From: Ignavibacteria bacterium
GTDB taxonomy: Bacteria; Bacteroidota; Ignavibacteria; Kapaibacteriales; Kapaibacteriaceae
Reading direction: 5' to 3'
Length of the DNA: 64,000 nucleotides
Assembly: GCA_013204605.1 (NCBI GenBank)
Contig: JABMNI010000014.1
Span: forward strand, 55,151-119,150
A program made the position numbers and the translations under genes. The notes beneath the pieces were generated by a model. That model was not told the origin of the DNA. It made no database searches and was given only the letters and a program-made list of their open reading frames with translations. This document shows, piece after piece, positions 3,863-36,289 of this stretch (position 1 is its first letter; each line of letters starts with the position of its first letter).

Positions 3863-3863
3863 C

Positions 3864-5078: not shown

Positions 5079-5082
5079 GATT

Positions 5083-8407: not shown

Positions 8408-9781
8408 ATGGCAGTAAGAAGAAGAGGCCGACCCCGTAAGAATGTTTCGTCGCATGAAAAACAATTGATGTCGAAAATTATTGACGGCTCATGCACCGTT
8501 GGTGTTGTTGGGCTGGGGTACGTAGGCTTGCCACTAGCGCTTGAGTTTGCAAAGAAAGGTATTAACACAATCGGATTCGATGTTGATACCACGAAGATCA
8601 AGCAGTTGAATAAAGGCAAGAACTACATTCAAGATTTGAACGCGGACGAAATTTATGATGTAGTGAAGCGCAAAAAGACCTTGCGTTCCACGTTGGATTT
8701 TGCGGAGTGCAGCGAGTGCGATGTGATTTACATTTGTGTTCCAACGCCTTTTACACCAAATAAAGAGCCCGACATTTCACACGTGCTCCAATCTGCTACG
8801 GCGGTTGCGAAAGCTATGAAACCGGGTCAGTTGGTGATCTTGAAAAGCACTACGTTTCCGGGCACCACAGAAAAATTTGTCAAGCCAATACTGGATGCAT
8901 CAGGTAACAAATGTGGTCAAACGTATTTCTTGGCTTTCTCACCCGAAAGAATTGATCCAGGAAACAAAAAGTGGAATACGAACAACACGCCGGTTGTGGT
9001 GGGGGGAGTTACCGATGCCTGTACCGATTTAGCAATAGCAATCAACAAACAGATAATTGCTGAGATTGTTCCTGTAAGCTCACCTAGTGTTGCTGAAATG
9101 GAAAAACTACTCGAGAACATTTTCCGCAGTGTAAACATTGCACTTGTGAACGAATTAGCGCAATTGTGCGATCGGATTGGAGTGAACATTTGGGAAGTTG
9201 TTGATGCCGCTTCTACCAAACCGTTTGGTTTTATGCCGTTCTATCCGGGGCCGGGCATTGGTGGACACTGCATACTCATTGATCCGTACTACCTTTCTTG
9301 GATGGCGCGTGAATACGACTTTGTGACAAACTTCATCACGCTTGCTGCCGAAGTTAATGAGTCGATGCCCTTCTATGTGCGATCAATGATCGAACGTGAA
9401 ATTGCAAAACAAACAGTAACCATGAAGAAGGCGAAAGTTTTGCTATTGGGTATGGCCTTCAAGAAAGATGTCGATGATTTGCGACACTCGCCCGCGTTAA
9501 AGGTGGCCGAATTGTTATTTGATGATGGAATCAATAATGTTTCGTACTACGATCCATTTATTCCATCGGTTGAAATTCATGGCAAAACATTGAAGAGCAG
9601 AAAAGAGCTAACTGCTACAAATCTGAAACGTCATGACGTTGTGGTTATTACCACCGATCATAGTTCCTTTGATATCGAGATGATCGTAAAGAATTCAAAG
9701 GTTGTAATCGACACAAGAAACGCAACGAAGAATGTTGGTGGACCACGAAGAAACATCGTGTTGCTAGGGGATGGTGAATGA
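8408..9781 (+). CDS. wecC: UDP-N-acetyl-D-mannosamine (nucleotide-sugar) dehydrogenase
   Basis: Rossmann motif VGVVGLGYVGLPLALEFA. UDP-glucose/GDP-mannose dehydrogenase family, adjacent to wecB. ATG 8408 sits 2 nt after the rfbB stop with an AAGGA upstream. An alternative start at ATG 8468 (MSKII...) would remove a basic, AT-hook-like N-terminal extension (RRRGRPRK). Confidence 0.8.
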   Translation: MAVRRRGRPRKNVSSHEKQLMSKIIDGSCTVGVVGLGYVGLPLALEFAKKGINTIGFDVDTTKIKQLNKGKNYIQDLNADEIYDVVKRKKTLRSTLDFAECSECDVIYICVPTPFTPNKEPDISHVLQSATAVAKAMKPGQLVILKSTTFPGTTEKFVKPILDASGNKCGQTYFLAFSPERIDPGNKKWNTNNTPVVVGGVTDACTDLAIAINKQIIAEIVPVSSPSVAEMEKLLENIFRSVNIALVNELAQLCDRIGVNIWEVVDAASTKPFGFMPFYPGPGIGGHCILIDPYYLSWMAREYDFVTNFITLAAEVNESMPFYVRSMIEREIAKQTVTMKKAKVLLLGMAFKKDVDDLRHSPALKVAELLFDDGINNVSYYDPFIPSVEIHGKTLKSRKELTATNLKRHDVVVITTDHSSFDIEMIVKNSKVVIDTRNATKNVGGPRRNIVLLGDGE

Positions 9782-10866
9782 AAAAAATTATCAGTGTTGT
9801 TGGAGCCCGACCCAATTTTGTAAAGGTGGCACCAATCCATCGGGCCTTTTTGAAAAAATCAGAGCTGTTTGACCATCGCATAATTCATACTGGTCAGCAT
9901 TACGACGCCACAATGTCGGACGCTTTTTTCACAGACTTAGAAATGCCTCAACCATCTTGGTTTTTAGGTGTCGGCAGCGGCAGTCACGCCGAACAGTCCG
10001 CACGCGTTATGGTAGGATTTGAAAAAGTATGTTTAGAGCACCAGCCCGATTACATAATAGTTGTGGGCGATGTTAACAGCACCGTTGCCTGTGCTCTTAC
10101 AAGCGTAAAAATGGGTATCACCACAGCACACGTTGAATCGGGTCTGCGTTCGTATGACCGCGCCATGCCCGAAGAAATTAACCGCATGGCCACCGACGCT
10201 ATCGTGGACCATCTATTCGTAACAGAAGAATCGGGTAGGGTAAACTTGTTGCGGGAGGGGGCTAGTCCAGACAGGATATTCTTTGTTGGAAATACAATGA
10301 TCGACTCGCTGCTTAACGCAGTTCCTGCGGCTAACAACAGTACCATACTCAAACGCCTGAGCGCTACACCTAAAGAATATGTGTTGGTTACGCTGCACAG
10401 ACCGAGCAACGTTGACATCCCTGAGCAATTACAAATGCTAACGAGGGTATTGGAAAATGTAGCACAGAGTACACCAATAATATTTCCAGTGCATCCTCGC
10501 ACAAGAAAGATGCTAGCAGAAATTGGGTTCGCCCCCTCCAAAAACATAACCATTATCGATCCGGTTGGATATATCGACTTTCTATGCCTTATGAAGAACA
10601 GTAAGGTTGTGTTGACAGATTCGGGCGGAATTCAGGAGGAAACTACCGCGTTAGGAGTGGCCTGTGTAACAGCGCGGACCTCAACTGAGCGCCCGAGCAC
10701 CATTGAGTTGGGCACAAACATATTGGTCCAGCCCACCGAGAAGGGAATTCTGGCTGGGATTAGGGAATCGCTAGCCGGCAGGTCTCGCAGTGCCTCGGTG
10801 CCGCCACTTTGGGACGGAAATGCGGCCGATCGCATCGTGGACGTGGTTGCAAGGCACTATTCTTAA
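9778..10866 (+). CDS. wecB: UDP-N-acetylglucosamine 2-epimerase (non-hydrolysing)
   Basis: MKKIISVVGARPNFVKVAPI..., HTGQHYD, and the DSGGIQEETTALGVAC motif. Confidence 0.9.
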   Translation: MKKIISVVGARPNFVKVAPIHRAFLKKSELFDHRIIHTGQHYDATMSDAFFTDLEMPQPSWFLGVGSGSHAEQSARVMVGFEKVCLEHQPDYIIVVGDVNSTVACALTSVKMGITTAHVESGLRSYDRAMPEEINRMATDAIVDHLFVTEESGRVNLLREGASPDRIFFVGNTMIDSLLNAVPAANNSTILKRLSATPKEYVLVTLHRPSNVDIPEQLQMLTRVLENVAQSTPIIFPVHPRTRKMLAEIGFAPSKNITIIDPVGYIDFLCLMKNSKVVLTDSGGIQEETTALGVACVTARTSTERPSTIELGTNILVQPTEKGILAGIRESLAGRSRSASVPPLWDGNAADRIVDVVARHYS

Positions 10867-16371: not shown

Positions 16372-18330
16372 ATGTCTGAAGTTGGTAACATTGATGTTAG
16401 CATCGTTATCGTCAACTACAATGTGAAAGACTACTTGCTGCAATGCTTGAAGTCGATTTACGCGCATAAAACAAACTTGATAATTCAGACTATTGTTGTT
16501 GACAACGCCTCAACTGATAATTCTGTAGCGGAGCTTCGTGGTTTATTCCCCAACGTTGTTTGGGTCGCGTTAGATGAGAACGTGGGTTTTGGAAGAGGGA
16601 ATAACGTTGGACTTGAGTTGTGCCGCGGCAAATACACGCTGTACTTAAACCCCGATACTGTGCTGGGTCAGGATACTCTAGACAGGATGAAAATATATCT
16701 CGATCAAAATCCTGATGTTGGATTAGCCGGATGCAAGGTGTTAAATGCCGATGGTACATTTCAAATTGCCTGTAGGCGTGGGTTCCCAACACCGTGGGCA
16801 TCTTTCTGCAAGCTGTTTGGTTTGCAAGCACTTTGGCCCTCGTCGAAGTTGTTTGCGGGGTACAATCTCACGTATCTGCCTATAAATGCTACGTATAACG
16901 TCGACGCATTAATCGGTGCGTTCATGATGGGTCCAACGGACTTGCTTGTCAACCTAGGCGGCTTCGATCCGGACTTCTTCATGTACGGTGAAGACCTCGA
17001 CCTTTGCAAACGTGTTCAGTTAGCCGGCCGAAGAGTAGTGTACAATCACTCAACAAGTATTGTGCACTACAAGGGCGAGAGTACAAAGCGAAGCGCTATC
17101 AATGAGAATAAAGTGTTTTATCTGGCCATGGAATTGTTTGCGCACAAGCACTTTGGCAGTTCGCGGATGTTTCTATTATTTTTACGAACGGGAATTCGAA
17201 CTCGAGGGCTAATTGAAAAATTGCTCTCCAAGAAATCTGATATTGGTTTACTATTCCTTGATCTCGTTTTGATAAACATAGCGTTGTTATGCGCTACCAC
17301 TTTGAAATTCGATTCCCCATTTGGTTTTCCTGCCTACGCATATCCTCTAGTTTTTGTAGTTATATCCTTGGTAGCAGGTTTTTCACTTATTTCTGTGGGA
17401 GAGTATGTCGAGTACAAACCAACAATTAGGCGAAGTTCAGTAGCCATGCTACTGTTGTTTTTCTTCCTATCGTCTTGCACGTACTTTTTCAAGGAGTACG
17501 CTTTTTCAAGAGGTGTTCTACTTATGACAATTGGGTTTTCGACATTCCTATTGGCATTGGCAAGGGGCTTGGTGGTTCTCTACGATACAACAAAGGGACC
17601 ACAAAAAGATCGCCGAATAGTTTTCATCGGTCTCAACCAACACACGCAACAAATAATGCAAGCTCTCCAAACCGCAAAACACAGGCATGCTACAATTGTA
17701 GGAGTAGTTGCGGTTGATAAATATGAGCTCGACACTTTTAGCGGAATTCCTGTACTTGGTACAACGGAGTACTTGGCTAGAATACTCTCAAGTGCGCAGG
17801 CCGACGAAGTAGTGTTAACAGATCAGAACGTCGGTCATAACAAGGCAATGGAACTAATGATGCAGTGTGCCTCGCTTCACGTGAGGTTTCATTTGGCCTC
17901 AGACTACGATGATGTTGTCACCGCTCGAATCATTAATGACGTGGCTGACGTGGAACCAACGGTGGCTACTTCTCCGTTAGTATTTTTCAGGAATAGGGTA
18001 GTTAAGAGATCCATAGACTTGCTGGTTGCTATATTTGTTTTGCCTTTCAAAGCGATCGCGGTATTTTTGAGTAGAGACGAACGAGAAGTTGGCATTAGGG
18101 TTTGGATAGAAGTGGCAAGGGGAGAGCGTAGTTTGATTGGTCTCTACCCGGATAACCGATCTCGCACCACGGGTAAACCTGGTATCACGGGTCTTGCACA
18201 TATAAGTAATCCGTCTGCACTTTCTCAGCAAGCAATTGCACAATTGAATGATTTTTATGTCGATCGTTATTCATTAGCTCTCGATATTGAAATCTTGTTA
18301 AAACACTTTCTGAATAAAAATCGTGGCTAG
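16372..18330 (+). CDS. Fusion protein: N-terminal GT2 glycosyltransferase plus a C-terminal WbaP-like membrane module with a degenerate phosphoglycosyl-transferase domain
   Basis: The ORF track starts at TTG 16336. I prefer ATG 16372 ([17 protein letters not shown]). GT2 motifs: [16 protein letters not shown]. Then 4 TM helices and a CoA-binding-like block ([14 protein letters not shown]...VVLTDQ). The last ~110 aa keep the PGT flanks ([15 protein letters not shown]..., [10 protein letters not shown], [21 protein letters not shown]) but lack the DE(I/L)PQ and PRP catalytic motifs. Confidence 0.6.
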
Positions 18331-19276
18331 TACTATTACATTAGAATTCGAAAAACCAATAGTTGAGCTTGAAAAAAAGATCCTTGAGATGCGATCTTTT
18401 TCCGACACCCTGGATATTGAGCCGCAGATAATTGAGTTGGAAGCTCAAGTTGAGCGTTTACGTGAAGAAATCTACCGGGATCTTACAAGGTGGCAAAGGG
18501 TTCAAATTGCCCGGCATCCGGACAGGCCGTATACTTTAGATTATGCCACACATTGCTTTGAAGGATTTGTGGAGCTACATGGCGACAGAAACTTTCGGGA
18601 CGATCCGGCAATAGTTGGAGGAACGGCATTGCTCGGGGGTAAACCAGTAATGGTAATCGGCCATCAAAAAGGCCGAGATACTAAAACAAATCTTTATAGA
18701 AATTTCGGAATGCCAAACCCGGAAGGGTATAGAAAAGCGCATAGGTTGCTTTCCCTTGCTGAAAAATTTAACATGCCCGTCGTCTGTTTTTTAGACACAC
18801 CGGGAGCGTACCCAGGTTTAGAAGCCGAGGAACGAGGTCAAGCTGAAGCCATTGCAAAAAATTTACTTCTCATGTCCCAACTTAAAGTGCCAATTGTAAT
18901 AATGGTAATTGGAGAAGGGGCTTCCGGGGGAGCGTTAGGAATAGGTATCGGCGACAGAGTACTAATGCTAGAAAATTCTTGGTATTCAGTTATTGCCCCA
19001 GAGTCTTGTTCCTCTATTTTGTGGCGTAGTTGGGAGTACAAAGAGCAAGCAGCAGAGGCGTTGAAGCTAACGGCCCCAGATCTTTTAGAGGTTGGAGTAA
19101 TAGACAGGATTGTGGCTGAGCCCGTTGGAGGCGCTCATCGAAATCCACAGAATATGTTCGACTCAGTGCAGAAAATCCTTTCGGAAGAAATCGAAGTATT
19201 ACAGAAAATCAACTCAACAACATTGGTCAACACCAGACGCAATAAGTTCTATGCAATGGGTGTTTGGACTGAGTAA
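18323..19276 (+). CDS. accA: Acetyl-CoA carboxylase carboxyltransferase alpha subunit
   Basis: Near full-length match to the AccA pattern: ...[12 protein letters not shown]...[10 protein letters not shown]...[23 protein letters not shown]...[17 protein letters not shown] start. Confidence 0.9.
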
Positions 19277-19318: not shown

Positions 19319-21238
19319 GTGAATATGGCACAGCAAGATCCGGATGATCGCAATGATCAAGAGGGTGCAAAAAATGAATCGGGGAAAAGTGACAAGCCAT
19401 CGTGGTGGCAAGACGGCTTTGAAGACGATAACAGTCAGCTGAAGTTCTTCGGTCCGGCCGGTGGTGCCGGAAGAAGTCAATCACCACCCAATGATAACCG
19501 CGGTCAAGGCGGCCAGGGTCAGAGTCGTGGCGGTAGGGGCCAAGGTGGCTACTCAAACCGCGACAACCGCAGTGGCGGCGGTGGAGGCTACTCAAACCGC
19601 GACAACCGAGGCGGCGGCGGTGGAGGCTACGCGAATCGTGATACCCGTGGACCGGATGGATACTCGAATCGCGATACACGCGGTCCGGCGGGGTATTCTA
19701 ATCGGGATAACCGAGGTCAAGGCCGTCCTCCAAGGACAGACGACCACAACCAAACTACCGATAGAAACCCAGACACGAGTAGTCAACCTGATTCTCAGAA
19801 TCGTGATAACCGCGGTGGTAACCAGAATAGAGGCCAGGGCGGAGATCAGAATCGCGATAGCCGCGGTGGATACCAGAATAGAGGCCAGGGCGGCTACCAG
19901 AACAGAGGCCCGGGCGGCTACCAGAACAGAGGCCAGGGCGGGTATCAAAACCGAGACAACAGGGGCCAAGGTAGTCCTCAAGAAGGAGAAAGACAGCCCA
20001 GAGATCCAGCCGACCCAAATCAGCCAGTTGATGGTGCGCAGCCTACTAGCTCAGAGAACAGAACTTTTAGAGCTAGAGGTGAAAGAAGCACGGGTCCTAG
20101 AGATTACAACCAGCCGAACAGACCCGACAACCGTGATCGGCAAGGTGGAAGGTACCAAGGTGGTCCAGATAATCGAGGTCAATCTGGCGGAAGATTCAAT
20201 CGTGATCAACGGGACAATCGTGATCAACGGGATAGTCGAGATAACCGTGGAGGCAGGTACGGCGAACAGAGAGGACCAGCGCAACAAAAATTTAATCCAA
20301 ATTCTAGAAATAGGTTTGCGAAAGATAGTCCCGAGAGTAAGGTACTTAGTGCTGACCAACAGGAATCGACTCAGACAAATCACGTTGGCTCAACGCTGAT
20401 TAAGGCTCTTATCCATTACCAATTTGCGTCGAGAGTTCTTGCGCTTGCAGCTATTAATAGCGGTAGAATAATGGTGAACGATGAGATAGCCACGAAAGCG
20501 AATATGTGGGTGTACCCCGACCAGGATGTATTTGCTGTAGACGGAACGGTGATTCATAAGAAAACCATTAAGCCCCTTACCATAATCTTTCACAAGCCAC
20601 ATAAACTTAGCGGCTCGAAGGAAGAATATCGGAATTCACTTTATAGCACTCTTACGAGTAAAAAAGGATGGCATGTACCATCTGGTGTGCTTACGAAGGC
20701 GGCGTCGGGAATTGTTGTTATTTCGAATGATCCGCGGCATAAAACCATGGAGCTTTCTACAATTAGTAGGCTTACGCGAGATGTGTGGGTGAAGGTGCAA
20801 CGGCTGCCAAAGAAGACAGAACTAACGAAGATTAAAAATCAACTGTTAACGTTGGTTGAATTAGATACTCCAATTTTTGAAATATCGATAGCGCAGAAAA
20901 ATTCCGAAACTGCGTGGGTGAAACTAACGGTGCGAAAAATCACCAATCATCAAATTATGATTGCGTTGAAAGAACAAGGTTTGGAAGCTCTGAACGTAGA
21001 ACGCAGAAGGTTGGGACCATTTAGTGTGGAAGATTTACCAGCAGGCGCATGGTATCGATTGTCCGACAATGATACTGTGGCTCTGGACGAACTTGCGATT
21101 TCAGGGGCGAAAGAGGAGGGAGCTTCTTTGCAAGCGATTTGGCAAAGCATGACGGCGAAACTCTTTGGTGCTTCGTCTGATACTACGTCGGAGATTGATG
21201 AGACTTTTGACGATGAAGAGTATGAAGATGAGGATTAA
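19319..21238 (+). CDS. RGG/YGG-repeat, intrinsically disordered protein fused to an S4 domain and an RluB/RsuA-like pseudouridine-synthase fold that lacks the catalytic Asp
   Basis: 639 aa. Residues ~40-330 are low-complexity repeats (GGYSNRDNR, GGYQNRGQG and similar). The C-terminal ~300 aa align by eye to RluB. The S4 region is LIKALIHYQFASRVLALAAINSGRIMVND. The PUS core is IFHKPHKLSG...PSGVLTKAASGIVVISND, where the canonical VGRLDxxSxGLLL motif is replaced (R>V, D>T). Acidic C-terminal tail DETFDDEEYEDED. Confidence 0.6.
   Translation: MNMAQQDPDDRNDQEGAKNESGKSDKPSWWQDGFEDDNSQLKFFGPAGGAGRSQSPPNDNRGQGGQGQSRGGRGQGGYSNRDNRSGGGGGYSNRDNRGGGGGGYANRDTRGPDGYSNRDTRGPAGYSNRDNRGQGRPPRTDDHNQTTDRNPDTSSQPDSQNRDNRGGNQNRGQGGDQNRDSRGGYQNRGQGGYQNRGPGGYQNRGQGGYQNRDNRGQGSPQEGERQPRDPADPNQPVDGAQPTSSENRTFRARGERSTGPRDYNQPNRPDNRDRQGGRYQGGPDNRGQSGGRFNRDQRDNRDQRDSRDNRGGRYGEQRGPAQQKFNPNSRNRFAKDSPESKVLSADQQESTQTNHVGSTLIKALIHYQFASRVLALAAINSGRIMVNDEIATKANMWVYPDQDVFAVDGTVIHKKTIKPLTIIFHKPHKLSGSKEEYRNSLYSTLTSKKGWHVPSGVLTKAASGIVVISNDPRHKTMELSTISRLTRDVWVKVQRLPKKTELTKIKNQLLTLVELDTPIFEISIAQKNSETAWVKLTVRKITNHQIMIALKEQGLEALNVERRRLGPFSVEDLPAGAWYRLSDNDTVALDELAISGAKEEGASLQAIWQSMTAKLFGASSDTTSEIDETFDDEEYEDED
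19490..19975 (+). repeat. Imperfect in-frame tandem nucleotide repeats (~27-30 nt units) encoding the GGY(S/Q)NR(D/G)(N/Q)R repeats
   Basis: Units such as ggctactcaaaccgcgacaaccg and ggctaccagaacagaggccagggcgg recur many times. The repeats also generate spurious long ORFs in other frames. Confidence 0.7.
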
Positions 21239-22988
21239 ACTGTAGCTCAAATAGCTTAGAGTAGATTCCGCCTGCACGCAACAGTTCTTGGTGTGTGCCG
21301 GTTTCTGCAACTTCACCGTGGTGCATTACTACGATTTTGTTTGCACGTTGAATTGTTGAAAGCCTGTGGGCAATTACAATACTTGTTCTGCCAGCCAACA
21401 ATGTTGAAATGGATCGTTCGATTAACTGCTCTGTTTCAGTATCAATATTCGAAGTCGCTTCATCCAAAATCAGAATGTCGGGGTTGGTTACCAACGCCCG
21501 GCAGAACGAAATCAGTTGTTTCTGTCCAACGCTTAACACCGCACCACGCTCTCGTACGTTGGTGTGGTAGCCATTTGGCAAGCGCGAGATGAACTCATGA
21601 GCACCTAAGGATTTTGCCGCTTCGATGGCGTCTTCTTCCGTAATTCCTTCTCTTCCGAGGGTAATGTTATCAATAACAGTTCTGGAAAACAGAAATACGT
21701 CTTGGAGTACAACAGCAATTCGGTTTCTGATAGTATCCTGGCGTATGTCTCGAACACTAATTCCATTTATCGTGACCTCGCCCTGTTGATAATCATAGAA
21801 CCTAGACAACACGTTGATTATCGAACTTTTTCCTGCTCCGGTTGCGCCAACAAAGGCTACCATTTCGCCTTTGTTTACAGTGAAGTTAACACCTCGTAAA
21901 ACCGGCACAGTTCCATCGTATGAAAAATGTACGTCCTTGAACTCTATAGCCCCCTCCAAACTCTCAAAAGCCTTTGCCTCTGGATTATCTGCAATTACAT
22001 TGTCAGTATCCAAAAGTGAAAAAATTCTTTCAGATGCTACAACGCTAGATTGCAGTGTGTTGTATTTTTCACTTAAGTCTCTTACGGGTCTAAAAAACAT
22101 TTCAGTGAATTGCGTGAATGCAACCAGGATTCCAATCGTCATCTCGCCTGTCACAATGTTCTTTGCTGCGTACCATACAATAACACTTAGCGCCAGACTA
22201 CTAAAAAACTCAACCACCGGAAAAAACGCAGCGTAGTATGTTACTGATCTATCGTGTAGAATTCGGTGTTCTTTATTGATAGCAGAAAACTCTTTGAATT
22301 TCCTATCTTCTTGGCGGAACAACTGAACTACGTTCATCCCCGTAATGTACTCGTTTATGAAGGCATTCATGGTGGAAACCTGCCTTCGTATCAGGTTGTA
22401 CACTACCCTAACCTTGGCTCTGAAAATAAATGAAGCGGTGAGCAAGAACGGCAGAATAAGGCACGTTAGTAGTGTAAGAGTAACTGACGTTTGCCACATG
22501 AAGTACAGGAGCCAAACGATTACCATCACGTCAGAGATCATGAGCACTACGCCGGCCGAAAAGAGTTCGTTTAACACTTCTACATCGCTGGTAACACGGG
22601 TTACAATTCGTCCAACGGGTGTTGTGTCGAAATATCTAAGCGCGAGTTTTTGGACGTGCTGATAGAGTTTATTTCGGATATCAAGTAACACGCGCTGGCC
22701 AATCCACGTCATTAACAACGACAGCCCATATTGCAGAATTCCCTGCAGTATGAGAAAACCCACGATTAACACGACAAAGAATGCAAGGCCATCAGTGTCG
22801 CCTACTACAATATGATCGTCGATAGCTATTCGCGTTAAGTACGGTCTAAGCGGACCCAGTGCGGAAGCGCCCAGCGTAAGGATTACTGCACCAATCAACT
22901 TCAGTTTATAGGGCTGCAAAAACTTGAACAACCTGCGCATCAATTTCGGGTCGAATTTGTGCCGTATTTCTTCTTGATTTCCTTTCAT
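21183..22988 (-). CDS. ABC exporter, fused permease/ATPase (MsbA/lipid-A or multidrug exporter family)
   Basis: 601 aa. 6-TM N-terminal domain. The NBD has Walker A GATGAGKSS, signature LSVGQKQ and Walker B ILILDEATS. An alternative start at Met 22940 is possible. Confidence 0.85.
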   Translation of the reverse strand: MKGNQEEIRHKFDPKLMRRLFKFLQPYKLKLIGAVILTLGASALGPLRPYLTRIAIDDHIVVGDTDGLAFFVVLIVGFLILQGILQYGLSLLMTWIGQRVLLDIRNKLYQHVQKLALRYFDTTPVGRIVTRVTSDVEVLNELFSAGVVLMISDVMVIVWLLYFMWQTSVTLTLLTCLILPFLLTASFIFRAKVRVVYNLIRRQVSTMNAFINEYITGMNVVQLFRQEDRKFKEFSAINKEHRILHDRSVTYYAAFFPVVEFFSSLALSVIVWYAAKNIVTGEMTIGILVAFTQFTEMFFRPVRDLSEKYNTLQSSVVASERIFSLLDTDNVIADNPEAKAFESLEGAIEFKDVHFSYDGTVPVLRGVNFTVNKGEMVAFVGATGAGKSSIINVLSRFYDYQQGEVTINGISVRDIRQDTIRNRIAVVLQDVFLFSRTVIDNITLGREGITEEDAIEAAKSLGAHEFISRLPNGYHTNVRERGAVLSVGQKQLISFCRALVTNPDILILDEATSNIDTETEQLIERSISTLLAGRTSIVIAHRLSTIQRANKIVVMHHGEVAETGTHQELLRAGGIYSKLFELQFNPHLHTLHRQKSHQSPT

Positions 22989-23003
22989 CCCGTAAATTAC
23001 GGG

Positions 23004-24407
23004 ATGATTACCATTACACCATTCGGTGCAGCCGGCGAAGTTACCGGCTCGAGCTATCTAGTTGAAACCCAAAACGGAAATTTATTAGTGGACTTTGGGA
23101 TGTTTCAAGGCGATAAAGATGATGACGCCAGAAATATTATCCCGGGAAAAATTCATAGGACGGCAATAAGTGCTGTGCTGCTCACCCATGCGCATTTTGA
23201 CCATAGCGGACGGTTGCCACTTTTAGTCAGAGAAGGCTACGGTGGGCCAATATTTTCTACGCCAGCCACGCGAGAAATGGCTGAGGTAATTCTGAGTGAT
23301 TCGGCTCACATTCAGACTTCAGATTTTGAACGTAAACAACGTAGATTCAAAAAATTTGGAAAGAAGCTTAATCGAATAGAGCAACCACTTTATGATGCCG
23401 ACGATGTGATCGACACTATGAAATTATTCTCGGACGTACCATACGAAACTGAGGTCAGCATAATTGAAGGTGTTACTGCTGTATTCCATGAGGCTGGTCA
23501 CATGCTGGGTTCAACCAGTATTACGTTACTCGTGCAAGATGAAGGTGCTGTGAAAAATGTTTTGTTTTCGGGCGATCTAGGTCCGTTAGATATGCCGTAC
23601 CTAAAGGATCCTCGTCCACCAAATTTTGCCGACGTCGTTGTTATGGAAGCAACCTACGGCGACCGCGATCATCAGTCGCTCCAAGACACGTTATTGCAAT
23701 TCGCAGCAATTATTCAAAATGCCGTTCAAAACAAAGGAAAGATTTTCATTCCTTCATTTGCAATTGGTCGGGCGCAGCAAATTATTTATCATCTCGCCCA
23801 ATTTATTCGGAATGGACTTGTACCACCACTGCCGATTTACTTAGACAGTCCAATGGCGATTGAAGCGTTCGCTCTTTATAAAAAATACCCCACACTTTTA
23901 GATAGAGAAAGTAGGGAATGGTTGGAGAAGGGACAAATAGCCGAGGACTTAGCAACCCTCGAACTTTGCGCTTCTGCGCAACAGTCAAAGGAAATCAACG
24001 ATACCCGGGGTCCGTTTATAGTGATAGCCGGTGCAGGTATGTGTAACGCCGGACGTATTGTTCACCACCTCTATCACAACATCACCGATCCAAATTCGCA
24101 CATTGTAATTGTTGGATATCAGGCAAGGGGCTCTCTGGGACGCTATATAGTTGACGGAGCGTCGAACGTATCTATCATGGGCGACAGAAAACCAGTGCGA
24201 GCAGAAGTTCACACCTTGGGTGGTTTTAGCGCACACGCCGGTCAAACCGAGTTGTTGAATTGGTACGATCGAGTGGCATCCACAAAGCCCCTTACCATAC
24301 TTACTCATGGCGAAATTGATAGTCGAAATGCATTGTCAGAAAAAATAACGGAGCGGTTTGGTGTGGAGAGCATTAAACCAAGCTATGCACAGATAATCAA
24401 GCTGTAA
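23004..24407 (+). CDS. MBL-fold beta-CASP ribonuclease (RNase J/CPSF-like RNA-metabolising metallo-beta-lactamase)
   Basis: ORF 22959..24407. I prefer ATG 23004 (MITITPFGAAGEVTGSS). HxHxDH motif LLTHAHFDHSG. beta-CASP region with the conserved AGHMLGS. Confidence 0.75.
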   Translation: MITITPFGAAGEVTGSSYLVETQNGNLLVDFGMFQGDKDDDARNIIPGKIHRTAISAVLLTHAHFDHSGRLPLLVREGYGGPIFSTPATREMAEVILSDSAHIQTSDFERKQRRFKKFGKKLNRIEQPLYDADDVIDTMKLFSDVPYETEVSIIEGVTAVFHEAGHMLGSTSITLLVQDEGAVKNVLFSGDLGPLDMPYLKDPRPPNFADVVVMEATYGDRDHQSLQDTLLQFAAIIQNAVQNKGKIFIPSFAIGRAQQIIYHLAQFIRNGLVPPLPIYLDSPMAIEAFALYKKYPTLLDRESREWLEKGQIAEDLATLELCASAQQSKEINDTRGPFIVIAGAGMCNAGRIVHHLYHNITDPNSHIVIVGYQARGSLGRYIVDGASNVSIMGDRKPVRAEVHTLGGFSAHAGQTELLNWYDRVASTKPLTILTHGEIDSRNALSEKITERFGVESIKPSYAQIIKL

Positions 24408-27128: not shown

Positions 27129-28949
27129 ATGGCAATGCTCAATTGTGGTTCATCGCGATATTCAGCCCGCATTTTTGTTTGCGCACTTATTGCCATACTT
27201 AGCACAATTCGCGCCGGTGCGCAAGTAGAAAATCAAGCAGACACTACGCAGAATGCACTATGGGTAACGGTGTCGGGCAACGTGTCACTAACTGCTGATC
27301 TATACGACTTCACATCCGACCCCACGGGTAAACAAGCCGGGCGCCGACCAAAACAACTTTATCGTTTAGTATTTAGTCCTACCATTACGCTTGGTGGTCT
27401 TGTTACTCTGCCGTTCAACATTATGTTGACGCTGCCAGAAACCAACGTCACCACCCCTTCCTTACAAAACCCCTCAATAGGTGAGTACTTACTAAACCCT
27501 GCAAACGCATTCGGCTTTTCAAGTTTCGCGCCTCGAATTGGTTGGGCTCAATTCTACTTGGGCTCACACACTCCGCAGTATTCCACACTCTCAAATTCTG
27601 ACCTTCCACTCTTTGGTGCTGGGATTGACTTTCAGCCATTAGGCATGCGTATAGCTGCTTCAGGGGGCGTGGTGCAACGTGCTATTGAGCCCGACTCAGT
27701 TCGCGGTTCACCCGCAACGTACCGACGTGATTTGTACATGGGACGCGTTGGAACTGCCGAAAATGACAATCTCACTTTCGGAGTAAACGTTGTGTACGCG
27801 CGCGATGATGGTGGTTCATTGCAGAACAATGTGGTAGCATTAGTTCCAGAGCGAATAGTAAATGGCGACTTTTCAATAGTCATTCCGCCCGATACATTGC
27901 GCCTGCGTCCAGAAGAGGGGATGATGGCCTCGGCAGATGTAAAGTACATACTATCGAAATCCATCAGCTTTAAAGCCGAAGGTGCAGTATCGAGCTTTAC
28001 GCGCGATCAAACGTCCGAGATAAAAAGTATAGAAGGTAACCCACTGGATCTAGTCACAAAAACTCGCGTTTCTACACGCGTAGACTACGCTGGAACTGCA
28101 AGCGTAGACATCAAGGACAGTTGGTGGGGAGTATCACTCACGGCTTTGTTTATGGGAGCGGGCTATGTGCCGCTGGCACAACCATACCAACAGTCTGACA
28201 GGCTAGAGTGGCGTATAGCCCCCTTCATAAAGGTTTTTGACGGCGACTTATTATGCAATGCAGTTGTTGGTTATCGCATTAACAATCTGTCTGGTACGAA
28301 GGGTGAAACACTATCGCAGGTTATTACGAACGGCAATATCCAAATTCAAATGACGCAGGAATTTTCGACTCTCATTCGGTATTCCAACTTTGGAGTAAGC
28401 AATCAACGCGATCAAGATACTTTGCGAATTAAAAATGTTAGTCAGTCTTTTGGTTTCGAGCCGTTGTTAATGGTAGAAGGTGATGAGGTGTCGCACACAG
28501 TGAATGCCAGTGTGGGAATTGATACTTACGACGATTTCAATGTGGTCTCCGGAATTTCAAGTTCAAATAATATGCGTAGTGCTTCACTAAATTATTTGGC
28601 TTCGATTATTTCGGTTCCCCTTAGCATCGGCGTAAACGGAAACTACATTGAAAACGCTCTCTTTACGGGAGTGTTTATCGTTCGTTCCATGGGCGGTATG
28701 GTGTCGTACAGATTCATGAATGGCGATATTATTCCTTCGCTCGCTCTAACGAATAGCAGCAGTACTTTTGGGAGTAACAATGCCGATCAACAACTCTTTT
28801 TCAAAGCCAGCCTTCGATGGCGCATTACGAAACGCACGTCGTTTAATGCTAGCTACGGAAGCAACAACTATACCTATGGCAATCCTTCTCCGCGCGGAAA
28901 TTCATTCTCGGAACGACTGGTGCAACTAGCATTTAGCACATCATTCTGA
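27129..28949 (+). CDS. Putative outer-membrane beta-barrel protein (secreted; family not recognised)
   Basis: 606 aa. N-terminal signal peptide (CALIAILSTIRAGAQ). Alternating hydrophobic pattern typical of beta strands. Ends ...LVQLAFSTSF with a C-terminal Phe, as OM barrels do. First gene of a three-gene cluster. Confidence 0.5.
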   Translation: MAMLNCGSSRYSARIFVCALIAILSTIRAGAQVENQADTTQNALWVTVSGNVSLTADLYDFTSDPTGKQAGRRPKQLYRLVFSPTITLGGLVTLPFNIMLTLPETNVTTPSLQNPSIGEYLLNPANAFGFSSFAPRIGWAQFYLGSHTPQYSTLSNSDLPLFGAGIDFQPLGMRIAASGGVVQRAIEPDSVRGSPATYRRDLYMGRVGTAENDNLTFGVNVVYARDDGGSLQNNVVALVPERIVNGDFSIVIPPDTLRLRPEEGMMASADVKYILSKSISFKAEGAVSSFTRDQTSEIKSIEGNPLDLVTKTRVSTRVDYAGTASVDIKDSWWGVSLTALFMGAGYVPLAQPYQQSDRLEWRIAPFIKVFDGDLLCNAVVGYRINNLSGTKGETLSQVITNGNIQIQMTQEFSTLIRYSNFGVSNQRDQDTLRIKNVSQSFGFEPLLMVEGDEVSHTVNASVGIDTYDDFNVVSGISSSNNMRSASLNYLASIISVPLSIGVNGNYIENALFTGVFIVRSMGGMVSYRFMNGDIIPSLALTNSSSTFGSNNADQQLFFKASLRWRITKRTSFNASYGSNNYTYGNPSPRGNSFSERLVQLAFSTSF

Positions 28950-28958
28950 TCACGCTTC

Positions 28959-31900
28959 ATGAGGTCTAAAATGACAAAAAATTATGCCGTTACAACATTG
29001 ATGCTTACAGCGGTACTGTTGACGGGAGTATTTGAAGTTTACGGACAACTTCGGGTTTCGGTAAATCTCACGTCGCGTCCGGACCCCTACATTTCCAATT
29101 GGTCTCAGCGCAAAGAGGTGGTAATTGTGAGTGTTACGAATTCTTCTTTAAAAGAGATCGATGCGAAATTCAACTGTACAGTGAAGAAGGATGGTGTTCT
29201 ACTTGCCAACACAAAACCCGAGAACATGCAGGTGCTTTCGATACAGCCTGGCTCTACTCAATACTACGGTGAAGATCTTGTTCCAATTGCTGCCATGCGA
29301 GTTATTGGCAATACCGAGCAAACATTAGTTAAGACCGGAATGCTTCCTGCGGGTGAATATGAGTTTTGTGTAAATCTTATACACCCAACTTCAGGCATTG
29401 AACTCACTCCGCCAGTGTGTAGGAACTTTACAATCCAAAGCTATCAAGCGCCAGTGCTCTTGTTGCCACTCGATGGTGACAGTTTGCGAAAGGGACAGCG
29501 CCCACTCTTTCGTTGGATGGCAGTTTCGCCAAAACCTTCGTTTGTGGTTAGATACCGTTTACAAGTATTTGAAGTAATGACCGGTCAGACTCCAATCACT
29601 GCATTTCGCGTTAACCAACCCATCATTGATGTTCCTGACATTCAAACTACACAGCTCTTGTGGCCGCCGGATTATGATCTTGTAAGTAATCAAAAAAGTC
29701 TGGTTTGGACGGTGCGGGCAATAGATGACAATGGTAATCCTTTGGGCGAGCCGAATGGTTATGCCACACCATTCGTTTTGAAATGCGCTCAAGATGTAAG
29801 CAAAGCAACTGGTGATGTAAGTACGGGTAACGCAACAAAAAAATCAGGCGCCGATGGCAATATGAATGCTAGGTCGGGTGAATCTGGTTCGTCCACCACT
29901 CGAAGCACATCTACCACGGGGTCCGATACAACAGATGCGAATTCGGCAAACAATGCAAAACAGTCCTCGGGTTCCAACACTCCTAGCTACCAAACGCCGC
30001 CAAGTTTGCCGTGCGGTCAATGTAGTTATGCCGTCACAATAACCGATACCGCTGCATCTGCCGGCAACGCCGTGGTAGGAGATTCGATTTCAATTGGACG
30101 CTTTTCAATGAAAATCACAACCTTGACAAACGCTCCGTTTGCTGCTTTGTCTGGGAAAGGGGAGATCAATATTCCTTGGTTACTCGCCCGTGTGCTGGTC
30201 ACTTTTGATAGTCTGAAAGTGAATGCAGCAAAGCAGGTTGTGATTGGAGAAGCGAGGAGCGAGGTAGATGCATCTGCGCCACAGTATCCTCAGCAATGGG
30301 CAATAAATCAGGCAGTAAGTTGGAACTGGACAAAAAAGACGGTAGCATGGGTAGATGACTTTGTAAAACAAAAGGGCAGTATTGTTAAATCTGTCAACAA
30401 CATGAACACGCCGCTAAAGGTACCTCTCGGATTTAACAACATTAGTGGCTACACCGTTTGCATATCGGAATTTCTATTCAAAAAAGATGATGCGCTTATG
30501 GCCATGGTAGCCACGATTCCATTACCTAAACTCGACGACACGCTAAGTCTTGGTTTGAACCAGTTGCCGATCTGTCCGCAGGGAGTTGGTAAGACCGCGC
30601 GTCTTGAACTACTCGCAGATCTTGATGTAAGGGGGCTTACCTCAGCGCAACCCACGTTTTCTATCACGGCGCTAGCACCAACCGCCAACCGTCCGGGGTG
30701 TTATATAATGTTCGGGTGCGACAACAACACCGACACACTATCGGTTGATTTTGATATTGCCTTCCCTCGCGCTTGGATTACACCTCGTCCCGATGCCGAC
30801 TCGACCAAACAAACCATTGCCACGCTGCGTGGAACAGCCGTCAACTGGAAGGAATGGTTGGTTGTAGGTAGCCTGCCGGCAAGCACGTTTGTAGGCACGA
30901 ACGGTATGGGACTGCAGGTAGACACACTTGCATTTGACTTCAGCGACAGACAAAACCCACCCGGAATAATATTCCCTGCTAATTATACTGGAATAACCGA
31001 CACAACATTCAATGGCTTCTATGCTAAGAAGGTTCGTATGTGGATGCCTGATGGGTGGCGCACGTTTGCTGATTCTGCTTCGGCTCCGGAGTTCAGCGCT
31101 AACTCTCTAATCATCAACAAGAATGGAATTACCGGTACGTTGCTCGGTGTAAATATTGTTCAGTTTCCGAATGCAAATCTCAATAGACTTAGTGCAAGTA
31201 TCGACACCGTAAAAGTTGTGATGCTAAACACCAATCTTACTTCGGCATATATGCGAGGTAGATTATTGTTGCCTATCACCGATTCGACTCCGCAGAACGC
31301 AATAGCGTATAAGGCGCTTTTCAATAGCACACAAAAGTCGTTCGACTTTTCGTTAACGCCTACTACTCCGATCGACATGAAGTTGTTTGCCGGTGCAAAG
31401 CTCACGTTGCTTCCGTCATCATCATTGACGATGACCATTTCGAAGGCTCGTAAAAAATTCGCTCTAGTCTTGAACGGGGAGATTGGGTTCAACGCCATTG
31501 AATTGCAGGTTGGGCAGAAAAAAGTAGCGGTAGATCTTTCGGTTGATTTCGAGAATATGTACGCATCGTACACCGACTCTGTTAAACACACCTTCGACTA
31601 TTCGATTGGCGACTGGAGTTTTGCTAGTGCACAGAAGAAGCTCGCGAAATTTCCGGTTACCATAGACAAGGTGAAGTACGCTAAGCTTACACCCGTTGGC
31701 TATGAATTAATGCGTGGTAAGGTGAGTTTAGATTTGATACTGGCACTAGATTCGAATCGGATTGGTGGAAAAGGATCGTTCGATGTTACCGTTGCTGTTG
31801 AGAAAAACAATCCCACGTCGTCATTCAAATTCCGGCCACGATTCATAGATTTCAATGTCGGAAAAGTTGACGTTCACGCCAAACTAGCAGCCGTTGAGTT

Positions 31901-33989
31901 GAACGGCGAACTAAACTTTTACAATGAAGATCCAACCTGGGGAAATGGTTTTGCCGCATCAATTCAGGCAAAGTTCAAAGCATTGCAATTGCAAATTGAT
32001 GTAGCGGGAAGATTTGGTACAAAGGTCGACAACACCAATACCAGATTCCGTTATTGGTATGCCGATGCAAAAGCAATACTTCCACCTCCAGGCATTGTGT
32101 TTTTACCTGGATATGCATTCTACGGTTTTGGTGTAACCGCTTGGCAGCGGATAAGTGTAGACATGACAGGGGCTAAACCTAACGCTGCTGCCGTGGCAGG
32201 AGCTTCCACAACAACCACGGCCCCAGGAAGCGGTGCTACCATGTCACCAAACAGACAAATCGGTTTCGGCTTCAAGGTTCTCGCCGTACTGGGCACTACA
32301 CCCGATCCCGCAAAGTTGAACGCCGATGTTGCACTAACGGGTCAGTTCTCAAACTCTGGTGGCATGATTAACATCGGCTTTATTGGTGATTTATGGTTGC
32401 AGGCAAAACTTTTGGAACGTGCATCGGCACCGGTAAAGGGCACGCTAAATATCAACTATGACTTTACAACGAAGATCTTCGACCTGAACGCAACGATGAC
32501 AATAAACAAGCCACCTGTCACCGGAAGTGGAAACTTGAAAGTTCACTTGGAAGGCAAAACTGGAATTTGGTATGTCAAACTTGGCGAACCAACAAACCGG
32601 AATACTATTGCCGTGAATTTTCTTGGAACTGGAATTACAGCCAACTCCTACTTTATGTTTGGCAAAAACATAACGCCCCCTACAGGATTTACACAGCGCA
32701 CATACAACGGCTTAGCGTCTGTTGGGTGCTACGGTATGACGCCATCGTCATCCGGAACAACAGGTGCGATTTCGGGCAGCGGATTTGCCGGCGGCTTAGA
32801 CGTCGGTTTCGACTCTGGCGAACGCATGCGAGACATAATTGCAAGGTTAAAAGCTAAGTGGAGATTTGCAGGGGGCTTTGAATTCAATGCATCGCTTTTA
32901 CGATATCCAAATGGCTCGCTGTGCGGTGGCGATGGCATGAATTGGTGGTATGTGCAAGCCAATGTTGCGGCGTACGCTATTGCGAGTGCCAGCGTGTATA
33001 TAACACCTAAAAAAATTAGCGACGGCTGCATTGTATGTTGCACTAAGAACCATCCTAATGGTTGTACCTACAACATTGCAACCATAACATTCGGTGCGTG
33101 GGCCGAGGCAGGATTCCCGAACAACTCATGGCTTCAAGGACAAGCAACAGGGTCGTTCAATGTACTTGGCGGAGCGTTCAGCGGAAGTTTTAGCGCAGAG
33201 TTTAACGTAGGCACACGATGCACGCCGGCACCTCCGGCCAGCGCGAACGTAGCGGCACAAGACGTTGGAGCCGAACAGGCAACCAAGCTGATAACATCGG
33301 TCACGCCTGCACACAACTCCATGAACGTAGCGCTAGCAGAACCCATCATGGCAATTTATTCATTTGAGCCCAACGTACCATTTGATTTAACCGAGTTGCA
33401 GGGTGGAGCATCCGGCAATACCGTGAACCGGACTTTTCAAGTAAAGTATGCTGTCACAGTAGAGCAGTTTAACGAAACAGTTTGGGCGCCAACTGTAGTT
33501 TCAAGCGCCAAGGATGCGCTTGGTGCATTTTTATTCCGAAGGAAGTCGAATATTATTCTACCCATAAACGACGTGACGTATAGTGCTAAGACTACCACTA
33601 TGACTCCTAAAAATACCAATGCACCATTTTCAACTTCCAATAGTCCTACTCCGATAACTCCGCCCAAACCAACCGCTGTTCTTAACGCGCCGAAAAATAC
33701 TTCAAACCCATTCGAAAACACCCCGCCCCCTTCAGAAAGTGACTCATACTCGTTCAGCAATGCCGGACAACAAGCATTCATGAATGCCACTCTAAATTGG
33801 GAGCTGGCAAAGAAGTATAGAGTTACCGTGGTGGGCACACTTTGGGAGCTTTCTTCAAACAATCAGTGGGTGATTGCTAAATCGAAAAGTTCGAATCAAA
33901 ATATTACGCAGACGGTAGTCAATGTTTTTAGTACGCCAATGCCGTTGATTGCTATTAATAAAAATGTGCAGAAGAACAGTGTTAAGTAA
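28959..33989 (+). CDS. Giant secreted protein (1676 aa); no family recognised
   Basis: Signal peptide MTKNYAVTTLMLTAVLLTGVFEVYGQ. Contains an S/T/N-rich linker (~29800-30010), a Cys cluster (SLCGGDG...DGCIVCCTKNHPNGCTY, ~32915-33070) and a Pro/Thr-rich linker (~33590-33750). No T9SS CTD, no LPXTG, no RHS/YD or cadherin-like motifs seen. Confidence 0.55.
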   Translation: MRSKMTKNYAVTTLMLTAVLLTGVFEVYGQLRVSVNLTSRPDPYISNWSQRKEVVIVSVTNSSLKEIDAKFNCTVKKDGVLLANTKPENMQVLSIQPGSTQYYGEDLVPIAAMRVIGNTEQTLVKTGMLPAGEYEFCVNLIHPTSGIELTPPVCRNFTIQSYQAPVLLLPLDGDSLRKGQRPLFRWMAVSPKPSFVVRYRLQVFEVMTGQTPITAFRVNQPIIDVPDIQTTQLLWPPDYDLVSNQKSLVWTVRAIDDNGNPLGEPNGYATPFVLKCAQDVSKATGDVSTGNATKKSGADGNMNARSGESGSSTTRSTSTTGSDTTDANSANNAKQSSGSNTPSYQTPPSLPCGQCSYAVTITDTAASAGNAVVGDSISIGRFSMKITTLTNAPFAALSGKGEINIPWLLARVLVTFDSLKVNAAKQVVIGEARSEVDASAPQYPQQWAINQAVSWNWTKKTVAWVDDFVKQKGSIVKSVNNMNTPLKVPLGFNNISGYTVCISEFLFKKDDALMAMVATIPLPKLDDTLSLGLNQLPICPQGVGKTARLELLADLDVRGLTSAQPTFSITALAPTANRPGCYIMFGCDNNTDTLSVDFDIAFPRAWITPRPDADSTKQTIATLRGTAVNWKEWLVVGSLPASTFVGTNGMGLQVDTLAFDFSDRQNPPGIIFPANYTGITDTTFNGFYAKKVRMWMPDGWRTFADSASAPEFSANSLIINKNGITGTLLGVNIVQFPNANLNRLSASIDTVKVVMLNTNLTSAYMRGRLLLPITDSTPQNAIAYKALFNSTQKSFDFSLTPTTPIDMKLFAGAKLTLLPSSSLTMTISKARKKFALVLNGEIGFNAIELQVGQKKVAVDLSVDFENMYASYTDSVKHTFDYSIGDWSFASAQKKLAKFPVTIDKVKYAKLTPVGYELMRGKVSLDLILALDSNRIGGKGSFDVTVAVEKNNPTSSFKFRPRFIDFNVGKVDVHAKLAAVELNGELNFYNEDPTWGNGFAASIQAKFKALQLQIDVAGRFGTKVDNTNTRFRYWYADAKAILPPPGIVFLPGYAFYGFGVTAWQRISVDMTGAKPNAAAVAGASTTTTAPGSGATMSPNRQIGFGFKVLAVLGTTPDPAKLNADVALTGQFSNSGGMINIGFIGDLWLQAKLLERASAPVKGTLNINYDFTTKIFDLNATMTINKPPVTGSGNLKVHLEGKTGIWYVKLGEPTNRNTIAVNFLGTGITANSYFMFGKNITPPTGFTQRTYNGLASVGCYGMTPSSSGTTGAISGSGFAGGLDVGFDSGERMRDIIARLKAKWRFAGGFEFNASLLRYPNGSLCGGDGMNWWYVQANVAAYAIASASVYITPKKISDGCIVCCTKNHPNGCTYNIATITFGAWAEAGFPNNSWLQGQATGSFNVLGGAFSGSFSAEFNVGTRCTPAPPASANVAAQDVGAEQATKLITSVTPAHNSMNVALAEPIMAIYSFEPNVPFDLTELQGGASGNTVNRTFQVKYAVTVEQFNETVWAPTVVSSAKDALGAFLFRRKSNIILPINDVTYSAKTTTMTPKNTNAPFSTSNSPTPITPPKPTAVLNAPKNTSNPFENTPPPSESDSYSFSNAGQQAFMNATLNWELAKKYRVTVVGTLWELSSNNQWVIAKSKSSNQNITQTVVNVFSTPMPLIAINKNVQKNSVK

Positions 33990-34014
33990 CTATCGCAAAT
34001 CAGGGACAACATCC

Positions 34015-36210: not shown

Positions 36211-36215
36211 CTGTG

Positions 36216-36289
36216 TGATCTCGCTGGGAGTCGAACCCAGGACCCTTTGATTAAAAGTCAAATGCTCTAGCCAGCTGAGCTACGAGATC
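36216..36289 (-). tRNA. tRNA-Lys (anticodon TTT)
   Basis: rc = GATCTCGTAGCTCAGCTGGCTAGAGCATTTGACTTTTAATCAAAGGGTCCTGGGTTCGACTCCCAGCGAGATCA. Cloverleaf with the T-loop GGTTCGA. Anticodon loop CTTTTAA. CCA not encoded. Confidence 0.85.

Follow-up and report, generated by a model that had tools for sequence, protein, structure and literature searches.

Can a protein that has kept the fold of a pseudouridine synthase (PUS) and lost its catalytic residues still serve the cell, and if so, in what capacity? The question is raised by a single gene in a 64,000-nucleotide stretch of Ignavibacteria bacterium DNA (contig JABMNI010000014.1, positions 55,151 to 119,150; hereafter the window). The open reading frame (ORF) at 19319..21238 (+) is confirmed: it starts with GTG and specifies 639 amino acids, with an in-frame ATG two codons further on (19325) and the stop codon at 21236-21238, and its orthologues occupy the same syntenic position in 13 of 13 Kapaibacteria-type loci. 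Using alignments, structure prediction, comparative genomics and measures of selection, we find that the product is likely a non-catalytic PUS-fold pseudoenzyme, a reading drawn from its sequence. What sets it apart is that all catalytic motifs have been lost across the lineage under continued strong selection, with the hallmarks of RNA binding kept.

The C-terminal ~285 residues of the protein are homologous to the RsuA-family rRNA pseudouridine synthases. The window protein falls under every curated family cut-off in Pfam and NCBIfam: TIGR00093 matches at E 1e-9 with 38.2 bits (cut-off 109.3), the NCBIfam RluF and RsuA models score 21.5 and 19.3 bits (cut-offs 318 and 275), the Pfam S4 match is weak (E 0.035, 14.3 bits vs a 22.8-bit cut-off), and there is no match to Pfam PF00849 at E<=1. 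A phmmer comparison with PDB sequences found RluF (3dh3, E 8e-5) and also RluE and RsuA, and a profile of the family itself matched RluF at 6e-11, RsuA at 3e-10 and RluB at 2e-7, the PDB matches ranging overall to 2e-5. We also built an AlphaFold2 (AF2) model of residues 352-639 on an 18-sequence family alignment (mean predicted local distance difference test, pLDDT, 75.5), for which the top Foldseek matches in the PDB were RluF, RluB, RsuA and RluE (E 2e-14 to 1e-8). The alignments to RluF, RsuA and RluB extend across their S4 domains, and the predicted alpha/beta topology fits such a domain. On these grounds a predicted S4-like RNA-binding domain can be placed at residues 358-413 (20390..20557, +; sub-cut-off Pfam match, AF2 secondary structure and conservation table), followed by an RsuA-family PUS core fold, read here as non-catalytic, at residues 418-594 (20570..21100, +; Foldseek and profile matches to the PDB, together with the selection data given below). 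An earlier note on this DNA, made by eye from the sequence, had proposed an S4 domain and a RluB/RsuA-type PUS fold for the C-terminal half. With Foldseek, profile and phmmer in agreement, that proposal is borne out, and the predicted fold assignment is sound.

The residues that turn this fold into an enzyme have been lost. HMMER pairs PSGVLTKAASGIVVISN of the window protein with PIGRLDKDSQGLIFLTN of RluF, the consensus of the family profile ('GvLtkaasG') lands on the GRLD...G of RluF, RsuA and RluB, and MAFFT alignments with canonical enzymes from Firmicutes loci give the same register for motif II. In four independent alignments, the column of the catalytic Asp is occupied by Thr459 (codon 20693-20695), and the motif of the window protein reads GVLT, with Val457 in place of Arg, within a degenerate motif II, PSGVLTKAASGIVVISNDP, at 20678..20734 (+). 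The Arg-to-Val and Asp-to-Thr exchanges that had been read by eye therefore hold, with RluF, RsuA and RluB all giving the same answer. It had been envisaged that another Asp of the loop, acting as nucleophile, would make the protein an ordinary RluB with a tail; the motif II loop contains no Asp or Glu ahead of the 'ND' (D471), intact enzymes share that Asp, and the reading of a lost nucleophile thus withstands this check. The erosion extends to the other motifs. The motif IIa Tyr, 99% conserved in 84 canonical sequences, is Val489 in the window protein (TRDVWVKV, 20774..20797, +; the canonical K-x-Y has become R487-x-V489), and motif I 'D..GR' is likewise gone. Motif III, canonically L-x-EGKNRQIRRM, is represented by VRKITNHQIMIAL (20930..20968, +), in which EGKNRQIRR corresponds to RKITNHQIM(I) and the conserved basic residues, including Arg residues that are 93-94% conserved in the canonical set, are missing. 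To our knowledge, all PUS families need the catalytic Asp, and substitutions of Asp102 in RsuA are said to be inactive. With the nucleophilic Asp gone, and with it the neighbouring Arg, the Tyr of the active site and the basic residues of motif III, we infer that the window protein would be unable to isomerise uridine.

Could it instead be an active pseudouridine synthase with a non-canonical nucleophile, that is, an ordinary RluB-type enzyme with a long tail? The fold is conserved together with several residues of the cleft (G456, L458, G464, N470-D471, R562 and G566), an invariant Glu (E435) lies in a 'GS[KR]E' motif of the Kapaibacteria, and some sister branches of the wider clade described below have Asp or Glu at the catalytic column (GRLD, GCLD, GCLE). 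However, the residue at this column varies across the clade (T/S/N/P/H/V/A/G/I), a chemically inconsistent set, so no replacement nucleophile is conserved there, and the active-site Tyr and the Arg residues of motif III have gone as well. E435 is limited to the Kapaibacteria branch and sits in a low-confidence loop (pLDDT <50, model residues 80-85), and no acidic residue is both conserved in the clade and missing from canonical enzymes. We regard such an activity as highly improbable.

The features that would be needed to hold RNA have had another fate. The S4 domain keeps 'ASR'/'SR' and 'GR[IV]xVN', as in canonical enzymes, and the PUS core keeps K426-P427 ('NKP') in addition to the six cleft positions named above. 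The net charge of the core is +9, compared with a clade mean of +9.8 and +11.5 in canonical enzymes. The retained S4 residues and the basic core suggest that the RNA-binding character has been kept. The family has also acquired conserved residues of its own (W451, W533, W578, W608, R564 and K551).

Genes that have lost their catalytic residues may simply be decaying, and the selection data speak directly to this. A word-indexed search among 5.8 billion proteins brought up 18 homologues. Thirteen orthologous loci came from a scan that took one genome per species; their labels are Candidatus Kapaibacterium, Kapaibacteriota or Ignavibacteria UBA2333, apart from a few metagenome-assembled genomes (MAGs) whose labels are evidently wrong. 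The Asp is present in none of the 18 and none of the 13. Full open frames of the orthologues range from 308 to 692 amino acids, and in all 13 loci the frame is intact and the architecture alike. In close pairs, the ratio of non-synonymous to synonymous substitution rates (dN/dS) is 0.017-0.032 for the folded domain and about 0.10-0.12 for the N-terminal arm that precedes it. The former value implies that the dead domain is functional and strongly constrained. The idea that the gene is a pseudogene in decay, or an artefact produced when ORFs were called across a low-complexity repeat, would fit the GTG start, the frequent shortening of homologues to 250-260 amino acids by gene callers and the identity of the PUS-like proteins, which is only 35-50% when their neighbours are 65-82% identical to those of the window (a difference which indicates that the PUS-like protein evolves relatively fast). 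It is effectively refuted by the 13 intact frames out of 13 and by dN/dS values well under 1 in both halves, and it also fits poorly with the conserved short motifs inside the repeat region and a confidently predicted fold. The earlier inference of a pseudoenzyme is strengthened by the absence of Asp from every locus and homologue, by the erosion of further motifs and by purifying selection. As a side observation, four of the orthologous loci (L009-L012) come from MAG contigs labelled Hyphomicrobiales or Bradyrhizobiaceae on which the Kapaibacteria-type gene order is complete and the neighbours share 57-82% identity with those of the window; they are probably taxonomically mislabelled or mis-binned.

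How far does the loss of the catalytic Asp reach? When 1.84 billion cluster representatives were searched exhaustively with a HMMER profile, 8845 matched at E<=1e-3 (50 at E<=1e-30), and the best 147 of the 8845 were aligned and classified. Of these 147, 82 are canonical, with both GRLD and motif III; the Asp is gone in 40, replaced by Glu in 6, and still present in 19 that have no recognisable motif III. None of the 13 Kapaibacteria-type loci keeps the residue. The degenerate sequences form one clade in a neighbour-joining tree, which is only indicative; a count of independent Asp losses would need a proper phylogeny. Throughout the clade motif III is gone, and the fate of the Asp depends on the branch (retained, replaced by Glu or lost), with motif II in the states GRLD, GCLD, GCLE, GRL[TSHPI], GPL[ASG] and G[VSG]L[TNP]. 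The branch of the window is the most eroded, as the Arg is also gone and the Tyr is gone in most members. R/G/N/D/Y-rich N-terminal repeat arms are present in all clade members examined, with units that differ by branch. Contig look-ups showed the gene directly following accA in six of seven clade representatives, including a GRLD member (P0056), a GCLE member (P0053) and two basal GRLT members (P0064 and P0086); the exception (P0042) lies on short contigs with another upstream context. The sources of the clade are labelled Ignavibacteria bacterium, Candidatus Kapaibacterium sp., Chlorobi/Chlorobiota bacterium and Bacteroidota bacterium, and two of its neighbourhoods contain Por_Secre_tail proteins, which are typical of lineages with a Bacteroidota-type type IX secretion system. 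In the simplest history, an arm-bearing RsuA-family enzyme was fixed downstream of accA in an ancestor of Ignavibacteria and Kapaibacteria, motif III was lost early, and the Asp was lost in several branches.

Downstream of the gene, the neighbours vary by lineage in this clade (ABC exporter, NUDIX, Ppx, family 4 glycosyltransferase, peptidase M1). In one Kapaibacterium-labelled MAG (L025), the degenerate RsuA-like gene is followed by a NUDIX gene and then, as the second gene downstream, by a TruA-type PUS gene (PseudoU_synth_1, 9308..10108); in L023 and L024, too, a NUDIX gene comes after the PUS-like one.

The second half of the problem is the N-terminal arm, residues 1-355 (19319..20383, +), a G/R/Q/N/D-rich low-complexity region that is predicted to be disordered from its composition, RG enrichment, pLDDT and dN/dS. 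It consists of 18.6% G, 14.4% R, 11.3% Q, 11.0% N and 10.7% D, with 4% hydrophobic residues, and it contains 18 RG dipeptides (9.4 +/- 2.6 in shuffled sequences), 5 RGG and 7 GGY. In the full-length AF2 model, whose pLDDT served as a stand-in for a disorder prediction, the arm scores 32-46 and has no secondary structure at all. The earlier note had likened it to RGG-box or prion-like domains. The first part of the comparison stands, given the RG enrichment and low pLDDT; the second was rejected, since the arm carries many charges (58 K+R and 48 D+E in 355 residues, with Q+N at 22%) and is of mixed R/D/G character, unlike a classical Q/N-rich, low-charge prion-like domain. By prediction, then, the arm is an RGG-box-type, mixed-charge, disordered low-complexity region.

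Tandem Repeats Finder detected DNA-level arrays in the arm with periods of 39, 33, 24/51 and 18. The first array consists of GYSNRDNRGGGGG / GYSNRDTRGP units with periods of 39 and 33 (19547..19714, +), the second of GGYQNRGQ units with periods of 24 and 51 (19796..19957, +), and the third is a short NRDQRD repeat with a period of 18 (20195..20233, +). Most orthologues have a long N-terminal low-complexity region with lineage-specific repeats, such as GGYGNRPQ, DRGGYGDRGGYR or PRPDNRG, and some have very short arms (about 45 amino acids in L009). Three short motifs are conserved inside this changing sequence: (i) WWQDGFEDDNSQLKFFG, an acidic run followed by SQ-[LIM]-x-[FY]FG (19403..19453, +), in 10 of the 14 orthologous genes scanned, that of the window included; (ii) NRTFRARGER, family form RTFRSRG[ED]R (20057..20086, +), also in 10 of 14; and (iii) KFNPNSRNRF, family form [RK]F[DN]PN (20288..20317, +), exact in the window, L004, L005 and L013 and with variants elsewhere. 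As a shared tag, the three motifs are absent from all other ORFs in about 270 kb of related DNA. The first ('DDDSQLKFFG') is superficially like the docking peptides that bind the beta-clamp (QLxLF) or form the tail of single-stranded DNA-binding protein (DDDIPF), a resemblance which we offer as an idea only, and more distant clade members have another recurring N-terminal motif, '[DE]DN[FI]GNREGAN'.

Is the arm, rather than the folded domain, what the protein is for? The protein could be a general RNA chaperone or condensate scaffold in which the arm drives the function, for instance in stress- or cold-induced ribonucleoprotein granules, and in which the dead PUS merely serves as an RNA-binding anchor and has no particular target on the ribosome. 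More than half of the protein is arm, which is retained clade-wide with differing units at a dN/dS of about 0.1, and its RGG, GGY and mixed R/D charge resemble known phase-separating sequences. Comparable disordered insertions are found in Rho factors of the FCB group (the Fibrobacterota together with Chlorobiota and Bacteroidota), one of which was shown to phase-separate (PMC11347177). On the other hand, similar arms occur on intact RsuA-family enzymes, and the arm alone therefore implies no new function; the very short arms of some orthologues and a folded domain that is much more constrained than the arm point the same way. This possibility is, in our judgement, a minor one. Indeed, R/G/P-rich N- or C-terminal extensions of 300-390 amino acids are frequent on intact enzymes with GRLD and motif III (P0094, P0126, P0151 and P0157), and a disordered arm by itself is not distinctive, as many intact RsuA-family enzymes bear one. 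The combination of disordered region, S4 domain and PUS fold, to which the earlier note drew attention, is confirmed as an architecture but is not in itself unusual. A bolder version would be that an entire FCB lineage, comprising Kapaibacteria and relatives among the Ignavibacteria, turned an rRNA pseudouridine synthase into a non-enzymatic RNA-binding factor whose FUS-like RGG/GGY arm drives condensates and whose three motifs recruit partners. We consider this speculative and improbable; were it true, the condensate-forming factor would be a bacterial counterpart of the scaffolds that assemble nucleoli or mitochondrial RNA granules.

At its other end, the protein has a family-specific additional helix, LQAIWQSMTAKLFG (21128..21169, +), supported by the family alignment, by conservation and by the predicted C-terminal helices of the full-length AF2 model (residues 583-594 and 604-617), and not found in canonical enzymes. 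It is followed by an acidic tail, SSDTTSEIDETFDDEEYEDED, at residues 619-639 (21173..21238 with the stop codon, +), identified by composition. The tail that had been noticed before is present (residues 600-639 have a net charge of -12), but it is not a feature of the family, being common only to the window protein and its nearest homologue (P0001). The tail is encoded by a 56-nt 3' overlap (21183-21238) with the convergent ABC-exporter gene (21183..22988, -), and the corresponding overlap in a related locus (L001) measures 8 nt only.

The genomic context raises a question of its own. The gene for the acetyl-CoA carboxylase carboxyltransferase alpha subunit, accA (18323..19276, +; Pfam ACCA E 5e-144), lies 42 nt upstream on the same strand, and the gene order is the same in 13 of 13 loci: Wzx-like flippase, Bac_transf, family 2 glycosyltransferase (GT2), GT2/Bac_transf, accA, the PUS-like gene and the convergent ABC exporter, to which most of the 13 then add a beta-CASP RNase-like gene and a class-II fumarase/aspartase-type lyase. 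Poly_export is also among the Pfam matches of the window genes upstream of the PUS-like gene. No terminator-like site is predicted in the 42-nt gap, and accA and the PUS-like gene are probably co-transcribed; otherwise, a scan for promoters and terminators around the gene gave counts not above those of shuffled sequence and no usable signal. Scans with Rfam and for tRNAs found nothing within or beside the PUS-like gene. The accA linkage is striking but unexplained. In the window, the beta-CASP/metallo-beta-lactamase RNase-like gene (22959..24407, +; Beta-Casp, RMMBL and Lactamase_B domains) lies two genes downstream; it is kept in most Kapaibacteria-type loci and not in the wider clade, and is a possible neighbour in RNA metabolism.

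A reading that takes this linkage at face value is that of an operon-tied post-transcriptional regulator, whose target would be mRNA, such as that of accA or of the envelope-polysaccharide genes, and not rRNA. The E. coli carboxyltransferase has been reported to bind its own mRNA. The adjacency to accA in 13 of 13 loci and in six of seven more distant contexts would be accounted for, as would the short or overlapping intergenic gaps in Kapaibacteria, the lack of a terminator-like site in the gap of the window, and the upstream GT2, Bac_transf, Wzx-like flippase and Poly_export genes. Nevertheless, conserved adjacency is no proof of a functional link, the downstream neighbours differ by lineage, Rfam found no structured RNA element in the region, and the members of the RsuA family are known to act on rRNA (PMC12710931). 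We consider a regulator of this kind rather unlikely.

The explanation that we favour, with moderate confidence, is that the window protein is a non-catalytic RNA-binding pseudoenzyme which probably acts on rRNA or in ribosome assembly, both the RNA binding and its target being proposed from homology. The protein would be a non-catalytic descendant of an RsuA/RluB-type rRNA pseudouridine synthase in which the S4 domain and PUS core have been kept as a basic RNA-binding module. The arm of about 355 residues of fast-evolving repeats would add multivalent, low-specificity contacts with RNA and possibly docking of partners, and the whole would most likely serve as a chaperone, placeholder or scaffold that binds an rRNA precursor or an intermediate of ribosome assembly, in a role parallel to that of the mitochondrial PUS-like factors RPUSD3 and mt-LAF3. 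RNA of ribosomal or pre-ribosomal origin is the most likely ligand because the homologues of the RsuA family act on 16S or 23S rRNA, and the structure of RluB with bound 23S rRNA (9CL9) is available (PMC12710931); 9CL9 is the Foldseek match of rank 8 for our AF2 model. RsuA itself is known to capture an intermediate of 30S assembly (PMC7356742). The RNA-binding pseudoenzyme at the core of this explanation is likely, and a specific role in ribosome assembly is plausible. Roles that do not depend on catalysis have precedents: RlmB and RlmKL stimulate the assembly of 50S even when inactive (PMC11194073), and the inactive RsuA D102N rescues some phenotypes (PMC10525438).

Several points weigh against this explanation. 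The rRNA target is suggested solely by homology; the confidence of the AF2 model is moderate (pLDDT 75.5), and the motif II loop is poorly predicted in the full-length model. Placement of the protein in one subfamily (RluB, RluF, RsuA or RluE) had to be rejected, as the matches to all four are weak and their order is not decisive. The genomic linkage is to accA and a cluster for polysaccharide synthesis, not to ribosomal or RNA-processing genes. In six-frame translations of the window and of the related loci with their flanks of +/-8 kb, a hidden Markov model made from 79 canonical sequences detected the PUS-like gene alone and no second, intact RsuA-family gene.

Elsewhere in the window, two regions caught our attention. 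Three large consecutive ORFs (606, 1676 and 738 amino acids) at 27129..36165 (+) have no Pfam-A match at E<=1e-6; they span about 9 kb and lie beside a tRNA-Lys gene (36215..36289, -). At 3290..5676 (-), two ORFs of 404 and 190 amino acids without a Pfam match come after a gene for an extracytoplasmic function-type sigma factor (5083..5676; Sigma70_r2/r4) and may encode an anti-sigma factor and a partner.

What do these findings add to the knowledge of this family? In public records, homologues of the window protein bear generic names or those of enzymes ("pseudouridine synthase" or "23S rRNA pseudouridine2605 synthase"), and such enzyme names probably over-predict rRNA modification in these phyla. 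The earlier remark that the protein belongs to no described family is consistent with its profile scores and with our search of the literature, which found no report of a bacterial RsuA-family pseudoenzyme; the PUS pseudoenzymes found there are only mitochondrial and of the RluA family. The clade offers a natural series at one fixed locus, from GRLD to Glu, to Asp-less forms and then to the loss of more motifs, all under strong selection. It is a tractable system in which to study the functions of pseudouridine synthases beyond pseudouridine, and the route that leads from a modification enzyme to an RNA chaperone or assembly factor.

Comparison with known systems helps to place the window protein. 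With the RsuA family (RluB 4LGT, RluF 3DH3, RsuA 1KSK, RluE 2OML), whose homologues have not yet been identified outside bacteria according to one review (PMC12710931), it shares the S4 domain and PUS core, the 'SR' of S4, 'NKP', the G-x-L/G of motif II, 'ND' and R562...G566. It differs from that family by the exchanges of Asp to Thr, Arg to Val and Tyr to Val, by the loss of the basic residues of motif III and of 'D..GR' of motif I, and also by its extra C-terminal helices, its own conserved Trp residues and its fixed place behind accA. The likeness to the atypical Rho of Bacteroidota/FCB and Actinomycetota is limited to the arm: both are bacterial RNA-binding proteins with a long, fast-evolving region predicted to be disordered, but Rho has an unrelated folded domain (an RNA helicase/translocase) and is an active enzyme. 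In Rho factors of the FCB super-phylum, to which the source of the window also belongs, the Arg-rich disordered insertions have been proposed to raise RNA affinity or to phase-separate, the latter shown for B. thetaiotaomicron (PMC11347177). Human RPUSD3, a mitochondrial PUS-like pseudoenzyme, also lacks the catalytic Asp (PMC12710931), but it is eukaryotic and organellar, belongs to the RluA family, has no comparable R/G-rich arm and is not orthologous. T. brucei mt-LAF3, an assembly factor of the mitoribosomal large subunit, is a PUS-fold, rRNA-binding scaffold which has lost the uridine-flipping Arg (HNLD for HRLD) and does not need its Asp (bioRxiv 10.1101/2023.02.23.529727). Unlike the window protein, it is a mitochondrial member of the RluA family with the Asp still present, and its role is known from cryo-EM and genetics, whereas that of the window protein is proposed from homology. 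In keeping its fold under persisting selection after the catalytic residues have gone, the window protein resembles the functional class of PUS-fold pseudoenzymes and non-catalytic assembly factors in which RPUSD3 and mt-LAF3 are placed.

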